From a virus, in the UHGV virus genome UHGV-0191815: a DNA stretch of 53,795 nucleotides; one strand, written 5' to 3'. Made by a program: the position numbers and the translations under genes. The notes under the pieces are model-generated. The model saw only the letters and a list, made by a program, of their open reading frames with translations. It had not been told where the DNA came from and searched no databases. Of the stretch, positions 4,635-46,414 are shown one piece after another. Within the stretch, counting starts at the first letter, position 1, and each line of letters starts with the position of its first letter.

Positions 4635-4662
4635 AAACGAGGCTAACGCCTCGTTTCTTTTT
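4635..4662 (+). terminator. Intrinsic terminator after the tail fibre gene
   Basis: Stem aaacgaggc / gcctcgttt with loop taac, followed by cttttt. Confidence 0.6.
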
Positions 4663-4917
4663 GTGTACCAAATTGTGACCAAATTGATAAATCAAAAACA
4701 AAAACAAAACATAACACATTGAATACAAATGAATTTTTCATTAAGTTATCCATTCAAAAGATAAGTAGGTAACGCCATTTCTATCATTTCACATCGTGTC
4801 ACATCGTCACCGCTTCACATTGATTTTAAAAGAAATATTTATTCTATCGTGTCATATCGTTCCCTATCGTGTTACTATCCATGCGTAAAATGTGTGTACC
4901 AAATAGTGACCAAAATT
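4662..4917 (+). promoter_or_regulatory. Integrase upstream region with repeats; candidate attP / arm-type binding sites
   Basis: Two near-identical 23-bp direct repeats tgtgtaccaaatWgtgaccaaa (4662-4684 and 4893-4915) flank an AT-rich stretch carrying short 10-bp-phased repeats (acatcgtgtc / acatcgtcac at 4791-4810; tatcgt at 4845, 4855, 4865). Confidence 0.35.
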
Positions 4918-6117
4918 ATGCTTACAGATACCAAATTACGAAACATTCACGGCAAGCCATACGACGGCCCGGAAGAAGTACCGGACGCTGGCGGATTGTC
5001 TGCCAGGATAAGCCCGCGCGGAGTTATATCTTTCCAGTATCGCTACCGATTCAACGGCAAGCCTCGACGGATGAAGATTGGCACATACGGAGAAATAACA
5101 CTCAAAGAAGCGCGGGCGGCGGTGGCGGAGCATAAGGAAGTGCTAAACTCAGGCCGAGATCCATCGGTAGCAAAAAGAATGCACCTTTCCCGCGTTACGA
5201 CACGGGCAACGGTTGAGGATATTGTAAGGGAGTACATGGAATCGCCGCAGGCAAGGAACATGGTCAATTATAAGCAGGTTGAGGCCATGCTAGATAAGCA
5301 CGTCATAAAACCATACGGTAGCTATATAGTCGATGATATGGACGCTATGATGTGGGAGGGGGTTTTTAGAAAGGTAGCCAGCGGTGGCGCACCAGTTCAG
5401 GCAGGTATAGTTCTCAACAGAATGAAGGCCGTAATAAAATACGCCATTCGCCGCCGCCGCGTGGATCGTGACGATATATCATTGCTGTGCGTTAAAGACG
5501 TTGGCAAAAAACCAGCGCAAGGCAAGCGAGTTTTGTCAATACAGGAGATCCACCGCCTAATCGGCCTTATAGACAGTTCAAAAATGGCGCGGCTGAATCA
5601 GATATTGATGAAGCTGATTATATTTACCGGGTGCAGGACAAGCGAACTGACAAACGCAAGGCGCGAGCATTTCGATCTTGATAGCTGCGTGTGGACGGTT
5701 CCTGGTGCATTGAGTAAGAACAGGAATGAGTTTAAGCGCGGTTTATCGGGCGTTAGCGTGGCTTTATTGCGTGAGGCTATGGATCTGCATAGCTTTAATT
5801 TTGTCTTCGTTCCTGTGCTTTCTGGAAGGGATGAGGCGGTGGATAGAAGTGTACCAAAAACAGCAGCTAGGGATTTAATGATGAGGATGGGCGGCGAGCC
5901 GTGGTCATGTCACGATCTACGCCGCACCGTGAGGACAAACCTTTCAGCGCTTGGCGTTGCGCCTCACGTCGCGGAAAAGGTTTTGGGGCACAAGCTGGCG
6001 GGAATGTTGGCTATATACGATCAGTATGACTATGTGAGGGAACAAATAGAGGCGATGAATAAGCTGGCTGATTATTACATGAAGCCCATTGACTTACAAA
6101 ATGAAATAACATCCTGA
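4918..6117 (+). CDS. int: Tyrosine integrase, P4-like family
   Basis: N-terminus MLTDTKLRNIHGKPYDGPEEVPDAGGLSARISPRGVISFQYRYRFNGKPRRMKIGTYGEITLKEARAAV matches the P4-type integrase N-terminal domain; C-terminal catalytic region has HDLRRT and Y; the ORF-track start at 4849 is an upstream extension. Confidence 0.85.
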   Translation: MLTDTKLRNIHGKPYDGPEEVPDAGGLSARISPRGVISFQYRYRFNGKPRRMKIGTYGEITLKEARAAVAEHKEVLNSGRDPSVAKRMHLSRVTTRATVEDIVREYMESPQARNMVNYKQVEAMLDKHVIKPYGSYIVDDMDAMMWEGVFRKVASGGAPVQAGIVLNRMKAVIKYAIRRRRVDRDDISLLCVKDVGKKPAQGKRVLSIQEIHRLIGLIDSSKMARLNQILMKLIIFTGCRTSELTNARREHFDLDSCVWTVPGALSKNRNEFKRGLSGVSVALLREAMDLHSFNFVFVPVLSGRDEAVDRSVPKTAARDLMMRMGGEPWSCHDLRRTVRTNLSALGVAPHVAEKVLGHKLAGMLAIYDQYDYVREQIEAMNKLADYYMKPIDLQNEITS

Positions 6118-8595: not shown

Positions 8596-10011
8596 TTAAA
8601 AGGATGCGTTATTCTGATTGTTTCGTTGGTTAAAACGGCTTGTGCGATGATTCATTGACTGAATGCACGCTGCGGCTGCGCGCGCCTGGTCGCATGGCAA
8701 GATATTACCGTTGTCATCAAACCGCTGGTAAACAGTTCCAGACTTACCATGACGGTTTTTTGACACAATGATTTCCATATATTCGCGAGCAACAGACTGT
8801 TCGTCGTAATATCCATCGCGGTAAACCATGATGATCCTGTCGGCATCTTGCTCAAGGTTGCCAGAATCACGAAGATCAGAATTATTAGGGCGCTTGTTCG
8901 GTCGCTCCTCAACGCGGCGGGACAATTGCGCCAGCGCCAACACTGGTACACGCAATTCTTTAGCCATCATCTTTAACGACCACGACAATTGCCCTACGGC
9001 GAGATCATGACGTTCGGCCTTAGCCAGCTTCATTAACCCGATATAGTCAATCATTACCATACCCAGGTTCGGGTGATCCTGCTTCATGCGTTCCGTTGTT
9101 GCGCGTATTTCCTCAACCGTTAACTGCGACGCGTCAACGATCCACACATCAAGGTTAGCAAGTGCGCTCATACCCTGGCCGACATGCGCCCAACCTTCAT
9201 CATCAAGTTTTACCGGATTGCGCAGGCAGTCAGTTGATAAATTACCAGCGCCAGCGATAGCCCGCTCAGTCATCTGATCGAGTGACATTTCAAGCGTGAA
9301 CAGCAAAACGCCAACCCGCTGATCTTTACTGCCAGGGTAAGGGCGTTCAGCGGCTGCGCGGGCAATTGTCAGCGCCAACGCAGATTTACCAGACCCAGGG
9401 CGTCCGGCGAGAAGCACCAAATCAGTAGCGTTAATGCCGCCCAACATTTCGTCGAGTGGTTCTATACCTGTTTTGATGTTGTCAGAATTGACACCGCATT
9501 CCATGCGCTTACTTAAAACATCCGTATATTCCTGTACCGCATCGCGCAACAGAACAGGAATGATCTTGTCTTTCGTTACCTTTAATTTTGAATACCGGGA
9601 ATCAAAATCTTTCATCGTCTCTTTGACGACCTCAAGCGTCCCCGTCTCCAGTTTGTAGCGCATATCGTCGATTAGTTCCAACATCTGCCGCCGCTGGTGC
9701 TCTTCACGTAGTAACTGTGCGTATCCCTTCAGGTTGGCAGCAGACGGGCACGATCGCGCCGTTTGCATCAGCGGTACAAAGTTTTCATTGCCAATCTCAT
9801 CACCTACCAGCAATGCATCTATGAGATTTCTGTTTCTGGCTTGCGCCCGGATAACTTCAAACGCACGTTTATAGAGCGGGATCGTGAACACTTCAGGATC
9901 AAGCGTGGCGAGAACATCTTGCGCGTTAGGAGTAAGACCGCCCAACAGCAGCCCGCCGATAACTGACGCCTCACGTTCCTGCCGTAGCGAGTTTATTTGC
10001 TCAGTTACCAT
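8596..10011 (-). CDS. Replicative DNA helicase, DnaB-like
   Basis: Walker A GRPGSGKSALAL; DnaB-type N-terminal domain (SVIGGLLLG...) and RecA-like C-terminal domain (...VLALAQLSR...). Confidence 0.85.
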   Translation of the reverse strand: MVTEQINSLRQEREASVIGGLLLGGLTPNAQDVLATLDPEVFTIPLYKRAFEVIRAQARNRNLIDALLVGDEIGNENFVPLMQTARSCPSAANLKGYAQLLREEHQRRQMLELIDDMRYKLETGTLEVVKETMKDFDSRYSKLKVTKDKIIPVLLRDAVQEYTDVLSKRMECGVNSDNIKTGIEPLDEMLGGINATDLVLLAGRPGSGKSALALTIARAAAERPYPGSKDQRVGVLLFTLEMSLDQMTERAIAGAGNLSTDCLRNPVKLDDEGWAHVGQGMSALANLDVWIVDASQLTVEEIRATTERMKQDHPNLGMVMIDYIGLMKLAKAERHDLAVGQLSWSLKMMAKELRVPVLALAQLSRRVEERPNKRPNNSDLRDSGNLEQDADRIIMVYRDGYYDEQSVAREYMEIIVSKNRHGKSGTVYQRFDDNGNILPCDQARAAAACIQSMNHRTSRFNQRNNQNNASF

Positions 10012-12292: not shown

Positions 12293-13345
12293 TCAAAGAG
12301 CGCCTGCGCGTGTATCACGTAGCGTTTTTGGTTTAAGCAGGAAATCAAGTGTCGCAGTGAAGCCATCGCCGAAGTAAAAATCTGAAGCATTGTTTTTGAA
12401 CGTTTCAAAGTAGGCGACAAAGCCGTTAATGCTTTTGTCTTTCAGGTAGTCGGTGAACGCGTAGATCTTGCGTTCAAGATCCCGATCCAGTTCGGCAGGT
12501 GGCAACAGGCCATCAAACGTGCTGTTAAATGCCTCCACTACGTCGGCAGCGTTTGCAGTGGCTGACAGGTTGCGCCATTTTTCAGCATCAGCCAGATACC
12601 CATCAAATTTAGTTACCCGGCAAATGTTAACAGGCTTAGGAGTTCCGCCACGACTACGCCATTGCGTTAAAGCCCACTCAATCACTAATGTGATCTCATC
12701 CTCTGTGTATGCTTTACGTGTTTTTGTTTCTGTCAGTAGTTCTGTAAATGGCTTGGCATCACGACATTTGCATCCTGCCTTGTCGTTGTAGAAGGCCAGG
12801 CAACGCAACGCCGCTTCGTTTATGCCATCATGACTGACTGTTTTTTGTTCACTTTCGACAATACACGTAGTGTATATATCTTTTTCTCTTTCTTCTTCTT
12901 CTTCTAATTCTAATTCATGACCCTTTCCTGACCCGGTCATGACCCTATCATGACCTTTTTGTGTTGGATTGATTAACTTTTCTAATTTTAATTGTTCCTT
13001 CGCTGTGTTTATTGCTGCCCTATATGCGCTTTTAGAAGTCATTGATTGGTCCAGCCTTTTTAATAACTTTAAACAAGTTATGTGGCCCTGAGAACATTCA
13101 AACAAACCAATTTCGATGAAGTATTTCATCATTTCTTCTATACGTTTTTCAGTCGATCCGACGTTTCGCGCAATGATTCTCGCGTCATGTCGTAGGTCAA
13201 AAGTCAGATTATGCTGATCTACGTCATAAGTTATTAGTTCGAGGCAATACCAATAAAGCCCGTACCCTTCCAGGCCATAATCTAACAAAACGTTTTGAAG
13301 TTTTTCATCGCGGTTAGCATCGCTATCGTGCTTAAACCACTTCAT
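12293..13345 (-). CDS. Replication initiation protein (replisome organiser, DUF4373-like N-terminus)
   Basis: N-terminus MKWFKHDSDANRDEKLQNVLLDYGLEGYGLYWYCLELI is typical of phage replication initiators; RBS ggagg; iterons lie inside the gene. Confidence 0.7.
   Translation of the reverse strand: MKWFKHDSDANRDEKLQNVLLDYGLEGYGLYWYCLELITYDVDQHNLTFDLRHDARIIARNVGSTEKRIEEMMKYFIEIGLFECSQGHITCLKLLKRLDQSMTSKSAYRAAINTAKEQLKLEKLINPTQKGHDRVMTGSGKGHELELEEEEEREKDIYTTCIVESEQKTVSHDGINEAALRCLAFYNDKAGCKCRDAKPFTELLTETKTRKAYTEDEITLVIEWALTQWRSRGGTPKPVNICRVTKFDGYLADAEKWRNLSATANAADVVEAFNSTFDGLLPPAELDRDLERKIYAFTDYLKDKSINGFVAYFETFKNNASDFYFGDGFTATLDFLLKPKTLRDTRAGAL
12915..12955. repeat. Candidate origin of replication: four iterons (tcatgaccc / tcctgaccc) with exact 11-bp phasing, next to a polypyrimidine/AT tract
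   Basis: Iteron starts at 12915, 12926, 12937 and 12948; flanking tract tttttctctttcttcttcttcttctaattctaatt (12875-12912); sits in the linker region of the initiator gene, as in lambda O. Confidence 0.55.
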
Positions 13346-13348
13346 AGA

Positions 13349-13603
13349 TCATTCCTCCGGCAATGCAATATCATAAATTTCGCCGTATTCGTCAGCGCGT
13401 TTAATGAATCCTTTGCGGATTAATGAGTTTAATGCGTCAACAGTAGTATGCAGTGGCAGTTCGCAGACTTTTGCGATCTCTTCGCGTGAAGCATGTGCGC
13501 GGCCCTTGTTGTCTGCCTTTTCTGCAAACGCCATTAAGACAATTTTTTGAATCGGGCTGTTAAGTTTTACGTTCCATGCTTTGCTAATCATGTTCATACT
13601 CAT
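13349..13603 (-). CDS. Small HTH DNA-binding protein, first gene of the minus-strand early operon (Cro/CII-like position)
   Basis: MSMNMISKAWNVKLNSPIQKIVLMAFAEKADNKGRAHASREEIAKVCELPLHTTVDALNSLIRKGFI; RBS aggag 9 nt upstream of this ATG; divergent from the repressor gene. Confidence 0.55.
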   Translation of the reverse strand: MSMNMISKAWNVKLNSPIQKIVLMAFAEKADNKGRAHASREEIAKVCELPLHTTVDALNSLIRKGFIKRADEYGEIYDIALPEE

Positions 13604-13909: not shown

Positions 13910-14557
13910 ATGAAAACAAAATGGTATGACTTGGCAAAACAACTCATGCGGGCGCAAGGCATGAGCCAGGATTCATTGGCTGATCTTATGGGGATAACCA
14001 AAGGTGGCCTTTCTCACTGGTTGAACGGTCGCCGTGAGCCGAATCTTGAAGATATTACGCGGATCATGCGGGCGCTTGGGCGTCGGCAATTCACTGTTAC
14101 TCATGATGGTATGGTCATTGATGATTCTGTTTCTAACACGTTGCCGGGAGCGCCACCGCGTGATTTAGGTAGTTACCCGGTTGTTGACTGGAAGGACGCA
14201 GCAAACAATATGGAAGACATACGCCGATCAACATTACCACACGTTACGACTAGCGTTATTTGTTCAGATGATAGTTACTGGCTGGTTGCTAAAGGTGAAT
14301 CAATGAACGCGCCGCAAGGGTTAAGCATCCCGGCGGGTACTATGATACTTGTTGACCCGCACGCGCCAGCTATTGATGGCAAACTGGTTATAGCCCAACT
14401 GGAGGAAGGGCAGACACCGACGTTTAAACAGTTGATTACTGATGGAGGCAGAAAACTTTTGCGTTCACTTAATCCGTTGTATCCTCCGATCCCTATGAAT
14501 CCAGAATCAAAAATCATTGGCGTGGTTGTTGATGCGAAGATCGTAAACCTGCCATAA
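13910..14557 (+). CDS. CI-like prophage repressor (HTH_XRE N-terminal domain + LexA-like S24 peptidase C-terminal domain)
   Basis: HTH (SQDSLADLMGITKGGLSHWLNGRR); C-terminal S24-type region (...LVAKGESMNAPQGLSIPAGTMILVD...KLVIAQLEEGQTPTFKQL) with Ser and Lys catalytic context. Confidence 0.85.
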   Translation: MKTKWYDLAKQLMRAQGMSQDSLADLMGITKGGLSHWLNGRREPNLEDITRIMRALGRRQFTVTHDGMVIDDSVSNTLPGAPPRDLGSYPVVDWKDAANNMEDIRRSTLPHVTTSVICSDDSYWLVAKGESMNAPQGLSIPAGTMILVDPHAPAIDGKLVIAQLEEGQTPTFKQLITDGGRKLLRSLNPLYPPIPMNPESKIIGVVVDAKIVNLP

Positions 14558-14587: not shown

Positions 14588-14679
14588 GCCATAAAAACGC
14601 CAAAACGTAAACAGAAAACCGTGTTTATTGTTTAAATATCAATGGCTTATAAATTTTATAAAAAAGTATACAAAATGTG

Positions 14680-14708
14680 TTGACTGGTGTTTTTACGTGG
14701 CGTATATT
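14680..14708 (+). promoter_or_regulatory. Sigma70-type promoter for the plus-strand early operon (PL-like), with an operator-like sequence abutting the -35
   Basis: -35 TTGACT (14680-14685), 17-bp spacer, -10 TATATT (14703-14708); gTATACAAAATGTG lies at 14666-14679. Confidence 0.6.
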
Positions 14709-46030: not shown

Positions 46031-46205
46031 CAATTTCATCATTCTTAAATTCGCCGTTTGCATAAAGCTGTAATGCGCTTATCAGTTCGTCGGCTTGCTT
46101 TTTGTCTATTACAATCATCTCGCAGTCGCTAACGATCCATAATCTTCCATCATCTTCAACACTAAGATCAATCCTTCTGCATTCTTCAGTCTCGTTAATA
46201 ATCAT
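46026..46205 (-). CDS. 59-aa acidic protein (cassette 2)
   Basis: MIINETEECRRIDLSVEDDGRLWIVSDCEMIVIDKKQADELISALQLYANGEFKNDEIE. Confidence 0.35.
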   Translation of the reverse strand: MIINETEECRRIDLSVEDDGRLWIVSDCEMIVIDKKQADELISALQLYANGEFKNDEIE

Positions 46206-46243
46206 TATAAACCTTCATTATTTTATTAATTTAGTGAATAAAT

Positions 46244-46414
46244 TTACTCAAATCTTGTATACCCTCTTTCAATTTTCCCTCCTCTTACACTTCTTGCGAA
46301 TACGGCATCTGTGTATCTGAAAAACGGTTCTTTGTATGTCTCGCCTTTACTATCCATCCATTTTAGCACCCATGCCATACGTTTTACATTGCTTTTATTT
46401 GCCGGGTTTTTCAT
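46244..46414 (-). CDS. 56-aa basic protein (cassette 2)
   Basis: MKNPANKSNVKRMAWVLKWMDSKGETYKEPFFRYTDAVFARSVRGGKIERGYTRFE. Confidence 0.35.
   Translation of the reverse strand: MKNPANKSNVKRMAWVLKWMDSKGETYKEPFFRYTDAVFARSVRGGKIERGYTRFE

Follow-up and report, generated by a model that had tools for sequence, protein, structure and literature searches.

The initiator gene and the repeats in its linker

We analyzed the 53,795-nucleotide virus genome UHGV-0191815, which is called the window here and is meant at its full length. The phage is temperate and belongs to the mEpimmI (mEp021) group of coliphages. Inside its replication initiator gene lies an array of four short repeats (iterons), followed by an AT-rich tract, and the two together are probably a replication origin. 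At this locus the window is 94.6% identical to phage mEp515, 94.0% identical to MagusPhagus, and 89 to 94% identical to prophages in 28 complete Escherichia coli genomes. The coordinates of the features are collected in Table 1.

The initiator consists of an N-terminal Lin1244_N domain (about amino acids [aa] 1 to 125), a disordered linker (aa 129 to 170), and a C-terminal domain (aa 171 to 350). Pfam places Lin1244_N (PF14297, formerly DUF4373; Lin1244/Lin1753-like) at aa 3 to 87, with an E value of 8.2e-11 and a score of 42.9 bits against a cutoff of 25. RefSeq likewise annotates a Lin1244/Lin1753-like N-terminal domain in the prophage orthologues. The protein also matches PHROGs 20981, 428, and 345, which are "replication initiation" families; the match to PHROG 345 ("replication initiation O-like") is at 6e-19, and its label is that of a remote-homology cluster. 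The C-domain is common to proteins of mEp021-group coliphages that are annotated "DNA replication protein O," and it forms a narrow family restricted to E. coli. The initial annotation had taken this open reading frame (ORF) for an initiator gene, and the domain, PHROG, and C-domain matches all support that prediction.

The protein does not belong to the lambda O family. A Pfam scan (E ≤ 0.01) returned PF14297 alone, with no Phage_rep_O (PF04492), and did not detect PF09524, the C-terminal domain of SPP1 G38P. No NCBIfam model matched the initiator or the small helix-turn-helix (HTH) protein encoded beside it. The whole initiator, compared by sequence with proteins of solved structure, gave nothing below an E value of 0.4. 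Foldseek, run with the full-length model against PDB, gave no match below 0.26, and its list held mostly winged-helix regulators; fold support for a winged-helix N-domain is weak. The AlphaFold model has two folded parts joined by the disordered linker, where the predicted local distance difference test score (pLDDT) is about 30.

The iterons, TCATGACC(C) or TCCTGACCC on the + strand, start at 12915, 12926, 12937, and 12948, at spacings of 11, 11, and 11 bp. In that order they are spelled tcatgaccc, tcctgaccc, tcatgaccc, and tcatgacc. The + strand from 12860 to 12960 reads gtgtatatat ctttttctct ttcttcttct tcttctaatt ctaa, then TTCATGACCCT-TTCCTGACCCG-GTCATGACCCT-ATCATGACCTT-tttg. Tandem Repeats Finder reported 12914 to 12959 with a period of 11 and 4.2 copies, and a separate repeat search gave the identical 11-bp register. 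The exact phasing that the initial annotation described is thus confirmed. The motif TCMTGACC occurs 7 times in the window against 1.95 expected, a count reached in 0 of 100 shuffles; five of the seven lie within 12915 to 12955, and the other two are isolated copies elsewhere. We also searched the full 53,795 bases for 8-mers (at most one mismatch) that recur four or more times with a constant period of 8 to 30 bp. This array was the sole result, and 20 block shuffles yielded none. The array is therefore real and beyond chance.

The iterons encode aa 131 to 144 (GHDRVMTGSGKGHE) of the 350, and an acidic stretch follows at aa 144 to 155 (ORF segment QKGHDRVMTGSGKGHELELEEEEEREKD). The array thus sits inside the initiator ORF, after the end of the N-domain and before the start of the C-domain. 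Its placement in the middle of the ORF, in an acidic linker, had been claimed before and is borne out; this linker is also predicted to be disordered. Iteron 2 and its flank form a perfect 10-bp palindrome, GGTCATGACC (12935 to 12944), and so the motif matches both strands there, at 12935 and 12937. Read on the + strand, which is antisense to the initiator gene, 12935 to 12955 can be drawn as a terminator-like hairpin that is followed by TTTTTGTGTT. The perfect palindrome GGTCATGACC lets the adjacent iterons 1 and 2 pair and so form this hairpin. The hairpin is probably a by-product of the iterons, though it could terminate antisense transcription. Three matches to the DnaA box TTWTNCACA occur in the window, below expectation, and none is near the array.

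In coding order the iterons are followed directly by the AT-rich tract, whose coding strand is purine rich. By nearest-neighbor energy, only two 40-mers of the window are less stable than 12873 to 12912 (99.9th percentile), although this segment is coding. The segment from 12877 to 12911 is 91% pyrimidine on the + strand and ranks joint first among the 35-mers of the window for strand asymmetry. The initial annotation called this tract homopyrimidine. It is pyrimidine rich on the + strand, but it is not strictly homopyrimidine, as taattctaatt contains A. The pyrimidine-rich tract codes for aa 144 to 158 (ELELEEEEEREKDIY). Among near-identical relatives (L008 to L013, L001, and L003) the unit GAATTA (Glu-Leu) at 12903 to 12914 varies from 1 to 5 copies, and the GAA count varies too; the candidate unwinding tract is thus length polymorphic, presumably through slippage. 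A second AT-rich stretch lies on the other side of the iterons, and its best 40-mer is in the 99.7th percentile for low duplex stability. The least stable DNA of the window is at 46162 to 46261 and at 14624 to 14683, the latter directly downstream of the cI-type repressor gene.

DNA-level constraint and co-variation with the N-terminal domain

A period of 11 is not divisible by three, so successive copies of the motif fall in different frames, and all three frames are used. In coding order, the four copies of the window are read GGT-CAT-GAT (H-D), GTC-ATG-ACC (V-M), GGG-TCA-GGA (S-G), and GGT-CAT-GAA (H-E). The array has a single mismatch, in the copy TCCTGACCC (+ strand, 12926), because a perfect copy there would read TCA-TGA, which contains a stop codon. 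Homologues avoid the stop in several ways: XM1 has TCA-TGC, most marine phages have TCA-GAA, and PdC23 uses a spacing of 10 bp. Because disorder is predicted for the linker, it should be able to tolerate codons imposed by the DNA.

We then asked how synonymous positions behave in 45 non-redundant genes, with the test anchored on amino acid context and not on the DNA motif. The Val or Ile codon before Met was xTC in 63 of 63 linker cases, against 202 of 977 (21%) elsewhere in the same genes (p = 9e-41). His before Asp or Glu was CAT in 46 of 48 linker cases, against 96 of 178 elsewhere (p = 7e-9). The codon preceding that His ended in T in 44 of the 48, against 28% elsewhere (p = 4e-20). In sum, these synonymous positions of the linker are 92 to 100% fixed, against a background of about 21 to 54%. 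In the same sequences, N-domain residues that are at least 90% conserved have a third-position majority base of only 52% (4-fold sites) or 70% (2/3-fold sites). Therefore, phylogenetic inertia does not explain the fixation in the linker. These N-domain control figures are all that we kept of a third-base tally anchored on the TCATG motif itself, which was rejected as circular. The synonymous test indicates that the repeats are selected as DNA, over and above the needs of coding.

The arrangement is conserved in a large family. About 1,690 homologues of the N-domain are detectable. In Pantoea PdC23, Vibrio vB_VpP_1, XM1, douglas 12A4, Pseudoalteromonas Pq0, and Pseudomonas 15b, the N-domains are 65 to 70% identical to that of the window and the C-domains are quite different. 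All six have three to five (G/A)TCATGA units at 11 bp (once 10 bp), right after the N-domain coding region, and then a simple tract that is both purine rich and AT rich. The vB_VpP_1 homologue, with an N-domain about 65% identical to that of the window and the same TCATGA iterons, has a PF09524 C-domain, and PF09524 is present in many N-domain homologues with TCATGA iterons. Two TCATG motifs exactly 11 bp apart occur at the linker position in 35 of 43 non-redundant genes, drawn from phages and IMG/VR contigs. The family consensus is TCATGAc....TCATGAct...TCaG.......CATGCAAGAtaAGAttAGAttAGA, or in fuller form AAaAaTCATGAcg.agTCATGAct.aaTCaGaaaaa.tCATGCAAGAtaAGAttAGAttAGAtaAGAatAgA. Across the family, the purine content of the 35 nucleotides that follow the array averages 76% and their A+T content 74%; the DNA coding for the N-domain has 57% and 59%, respectively. 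Eight close relatives of the window keep the array, and their substitutions within it fall only in the degenerate copy and in the spacer that precedes that copy.

The repeats change when the N-domain changes. In phages mEp021, mEp010, mEp044, mEp554, and mEp013, the C-terminal half of the initiator is about 95% identical to that of the window, and the N-terminal 110 or so residues are an unrelated HTH_36 domain. At the equivalent spot of the linker, these mEp021-type genes carry four 22- to 23-bp repeats with internal dyad symmetry (GGTGACTCTGTGACACTACCCCC type), followed by an AT-rich stretch. The C-domain is shared while the N-domain and the repeats both differ, and therefore the DNA-binding domain and the repeats have been exchanged together. 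In lambdoid phages, the N-terminal part of O and its iterons are likewise exchanged jointly. The mEp021-type repeats are a candidate lambda-like origin in their own right, and the mEp021-type module looks like an alternative specificity cassette.

Smaller changes in the N-domain are accompanied by other motifs. Two IMG/VR contigs (L056 and L057) encode the window-type C-domain with a Lin1244_N domain 75% identical to that of the window, and five (A/G)CCATG units at exactly 11 bp replace GGTCATGA. Where the N-domain is only 30 to 57% identical, in metagenome-assembled genomes (MAGs) binned to several phyla, the linker position carries GTCCCGAC/GTCGGGA, GTCAGGAG, TCCGG, or ATCCCGA. These motifs are phased at 10 to 11 bp (sometimes 21 to 22 bp) and are then followed by purine-rich AGAAGAGAAGAG-type tracts. 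The repeat sequence thus co-varies with the DNA-binding domain of the initiator: HTH_36 goes with 22- to 23-bp repeats, and Lin1244_N variants go with TCATGA, CCATG, GTCCCGAC, GTCAGGAG, and others. Position, phasing, and flanking tract are conserved, and the motif changes with the N-domain.

Two unusual linkers were seen in the family. In L090 (IMG/VR; gene nucleotides about 340 to 700) and L103, a domain of about 100 residues is inserted at the usual place of the iterons. The insert (..GYVYFI..KIGRSKNP..NEWF..) resembles a GIY-YIG/T5orf172-type nuclease, and in L090 the ..VMQDKIR.. motif comes after it; the insert may be a mobile endonuclease domain seated in a putative origin. In L100, a Vibrio MAG, gene nucleotides 347 to 430 hold three to four copies of GGTGTCATGACGTCTGCTGAC with a period of 21 bp that encode the exact peptide repeat GVMTSAD three times. 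The DNA and peptide repeats coincide in this case because 21 is a multiple of three.

Genomic setting, a candidate origin, and its alternatives

The cI/LexA-type repressor gene is divergent from the operon that contains the initiator gene, and the small HTH_36 gene lies directly upstream of the initiator gene and is probably co-transcribed with it. Downstream on the same strand are genes for an Ant/Bro-type protein, a phrog_704 "DNA repair exonuclease"-type protein, the DnaB-type helicase, a MarR-like protein, and NinB. This neighborhood makes the initiator gene the second gene of a repressor-adjacent early operon, the place of gene O in lambdoid phages. The helicase also matches TIGR03600 phage_DnaB (E = 4e-83) and TIGR00665 (E = 1e-95), with both scores under the curated cutoffs, and it is the presumed client of the initiator C-domain.

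Repeats of other kinds occur elsewhere in the window. Short direct repeats phased at about 10 bp (TCACATCGTG twice and TATCGTGTCA-type three times), together with two copies of TTGTGTACCAAA, lie at 4789 to 4872 (with 4661 to 4686). They occupy an AT-rich gap directly upstream of ORF 4849-6117, and the gap extends into the start of this ORF, whose product is a tyrosine integrase that carries an Arm DNA-binding domain (PF13356, PF00589). The repeats are probably arm-type integrase sites of attP. In addition, a 108-bp unit is present in 1.9 copies with a 75% match at 26 to 231, at the start of ORF 95-1363, which encodes a tail-tip fiber protein (PF09327).

Table 1. Positions of the initiator gene, the repeats, and associated features
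Feature	Position	Strand	Basis or remark
Replication initiator (replisome organizer) gene, 350 aa	12293..13345	-	Pfam, PHROGs, mEp alignment, AlphaFold
Iteron array, four GGTCATGA copies (coding strand)	12915..12955	-	Repeat scans; proposed initiator-binding part of origin
Iteron 1 (coding order), GGTCATGA, codons GGT-CAT-GAT = G-H-D	12948..12955	-	Frame analysis
Iteron 2, GGGTCATGA, codons (A)GG-GTC-ATG-A(CC) = R-V-M-T	12937..12945	-	Frame analysis
Iteron 3, imperfect copy GGGTCAGGA, codons GGG-TCA-GGA = G-S-G	12926..12934	-	Frame analysis
Iteron 4, GGGTCATGA, codons GGT-CAT-GAA = G-H-E	12915..12923	-	Frame analysis
AT-rich tract, coding strand purine rich, (GAATTA)2 (GAA)n AGAGAAAAAGATATATA; candidate DNA-unwinding element	12873..12914	-	Nearest-neighbor energy
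Second AT-rich stretch, other side of iterons; codes for end of last N-domain helix KEQLKLEKLINPTQK	12956..13010	-	Duplex stability
Small HTH_36 protein, 84 aa from internal ATG (open frame reaches 13717)	13349..13603	-	Pfam, PHROGs
Phage DnaB-type replicative helicase, downstream of initiator gene	8596..10011	-	Pfam DnaB_C, E = 2.5e-75; PHROG 19
cI/LexA-type repressor gene	13910-14557	divergent from initiator operon	Pfam
mEp021-type dyad repeats, four of 22-23 bp	L002 3627-3714; L005 2127-2214; L004 2121-2209; L007 2118-2207		Linker of HTH_36-type initiator

We propose that 12873 to 12955 is a theta-type phage replication origin within the part of its own initiator gene that codes for the linker, and we consider this likely. 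The initial annotation had put forward an origin candidate here, and each part of it that a sequence can speak to is supported, namely, an initiator-type ORF, repeats between its domains, and an adjoining AT-rich, strand-asymmetric tract. The comparison adds three observations: the repeats change along with the N-domain, constraint acts on their DNA sequence, and a large family of phages retains the layout.

In the proposed mechanism, the early leftward operon, which starts beside the cI-type repressor gene, would express the initiator. Its winged-helix-like Lin1244_N domain would bind the four GGTCATGA iterons. With a spacing of 11 bp, the iterons all lie close to one side of the helix, and we therefore propose a compact complex like the lambda "O-some." This complex would strain and melt the AT-rich, strand-asymmetric tract. 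The C-terminal domain would then bring in the phage DnaB-type helicase, with the host replisome next. In this scenario, we infer binding by the N-domain, unwinding within the flanking tract, and, at that place, helicase recruitment and the start of replication. Early-operon transcription crosses the proposed origin, as it does in lambda, and may activate it.

Several points weigh against this proposal. No helicase loader gene was recognized in the window, and so the helicase recruitment step is a conjecture. A literature search found no binding or initiation evidence for the window phage or for any Lin1244_N protein and, within its incomplete coverage, no origin described for mEpimmI phages or for Lin1244_N/DUF4373 proteins. 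The genome paper of the mEpimmI/mEp021 group mentions no origin, the mEp021-type repeats included (PMC11893012). The sequences counted in the synonymous test are related, so that the counts are not wholly independent, and the short peptide HDxVM is itself conserved, so that some selection may act on the peptide. The cumulative GC-skew minimum at 12 to 14 kb coincides with the divergent switch in transcription direction; it is therefore non-discriminating, and we dropped it as evidence.

A first alternative is that the repeats are true initiator sites with another task (autoregulation, copy control, a transcription roadblock, or an auxiliary role like that of SPP1 oriR), and that initiation occurs elsewhere, for example, in an AT-rich intergenic region. 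Iteron plasmid initiators commonly regulate themselves through their own iterons. The intergenic segments at 46195 to 46254, 14624 to 14683, and 4686 to 4745 are as unstable as the tract or more so, and SPP1 G38P binds two regions, oriL and oriR (PMC5737612). However, the window has no second iteron-like cluster, the motif recurs outside the array only as two isolated copies, and a promoter scan found no convincing sigma-70-like promoter on the coding strand overlapping the array. Across the family, moreover, a tract rich in both purines and A+T always comes directly after the repeats, and this layout marks an origin, not an operator. We regard this alternative as unlikely.

A second alternative is that another protein, either the small HTH_36 protein or a host factor, binds the repeats, and that Lin1244_N has a different role. 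The small protein is a winged-helix/HTH protein that resembles the N terminus of O-like initiators, and it is 35 to 37% identical between the two mEp replication-module types. However, it varies by 34 to 45% among the phages compared without a matching change in the iterons: in prophages L008 and L009 it is 63 to 66% identical to that of the window, and the iterons there match except for the degenerate copy and a spacer base. In L057, which carries the CCATG units, it is 55% identical. Distant phages with TCATGA repeats do not have the small HTH gene; upstream of their initiator genes are genes for KilA-N, a Cro-like regulator, or hypothetical proteins. The repeat sequence instead tracks the divergence of Lin1244_N. 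Binding by another protein is thus quite improbable. It is more improbable still, to the point of being hardly credible, that the repeats have no function as DNA and arose by chance or from a low-complexity, repetitive peptide linker. This linker is indeed disordered and low in complexity, and HDxVM recurs in homologues, but the array is read in three frames with its synonymous positions nearly fixed. It has no counterpart elsewhere in the window or in the shuffles, and the phasing stays at 10 to 11 (or 21 to 22) bp while the motif changes with the N-domain.

Comparison with known origins and implications

The AT-rich region of the lambda origin is strand-asymmetric. The lambda origin lies in the middle of gene O and consists of iterons and an AT-rich tract (PMC7466680). 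In lambda and its Stx-phage variants, as in the window, the candidate or known origin sits in the middle of the initiator gene, after the DNA-binding N-terminal portion and before the C-terminal one; four iterons (six in Stx phages) precede the AT-rich tract, compared with four in the window, and the initiator gene belongs to an early operon beside the repressor gene (PMC7466680). The parallel with ori-lambda drawn in the initial annotation holds, and the coding order of N-domain, iterons, AT-rich tract, and C-domain is also that of lambda ori (PMC7466680). The systems differ in detail. The lambda iterons are inverted repeats of about 19 bp, spaced about two helical turns apart, whereas those of the window are 8 to 9 bp long, one per turn of 11 bp. 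The lambda initiator belongs to Phage_rep_O, and the N-domain of the window protein is Lin1244_N. In lambda a P-type protein hijacks the host helicase, whereas the window phage encodes its own DnaB-type helicase.

Three other systems are informative. The mEp021-type module shares with the window its C-domain, gene position, neighboring genes, and the linker layout of repeats followed by AT-rich DNA; it differs in its HTH_36 N-domain and in its four lambda-like dyad repeats of 22 to 23 bp. Salmonella phage P22 (genes 18 and 12) combines an O-like initiator that has the origin in its gene with a phage DnaB-type helicase, and it has no lambda P-type protein. Its arrangement is like that of the window, where no loader gene was recognized, but the initiator family and the iterons are different. 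In SPP1, oriL is composed of AB boxes and an AT-rich DNA-unwinding element embedded in gene 38, whose product, G38P, is in PF09524 (PMC5737612). SPP1 and the window are alike in that the origin, proposed in the window, lies inside the gene of its own organizer and in that the organizer has no AAA+ domain. They differ in that G38P has PF09524 and the window protein does not, and no gene for a G39P-like loader was recognized in the window.

The element of the window is thus very probably an origin of an ordinary kind, comparable to lambda ori and SPP1 oriL, and new for the Lin1244_N initiator family. For the prevalent but little-studied gut coliphages of the mEpimmI (mEp021) group, it would locate a probable origin. 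The two or three N-domain/iteron cassettes of the mEp group would predict replication-specificity types, as in lambdoid phages. The segment from 12850 to 13020, together with the initiator, might find use as a phage-derived replicon or as a decoy that interferes with replication.

Most of the interest lies in the pattern across the family and in the constraint by the stop codon. Here a DNA element acting in cis and a reading frame restrict one another: one 6-mer is read as H-D, as V-M, or, in the forbidden frame, as a stop. Translation thus limits the putative origin, and the copy that would read TCA-TGA is forced to degenerate. On a wider scale, we lean toward the view that origin recognition is the task of Lin1244_N in a very large class of phage replisome organizers across several bacterial phyla, in which three to six short iterons, spaced one per turn (10 to 11 bp), lie in the linker of the gene itself, precede a purine-rich unwinding tract, and co-evolve with the domain. 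Lin1244_N/DUF4373 would then gain a concrete function, which we propose to be the recognition of 11-bp-phased iterons, and origins would become predictable in many uncultured phages. If so, the co-evolution of iterons and domain would amount to a readable specificity code.

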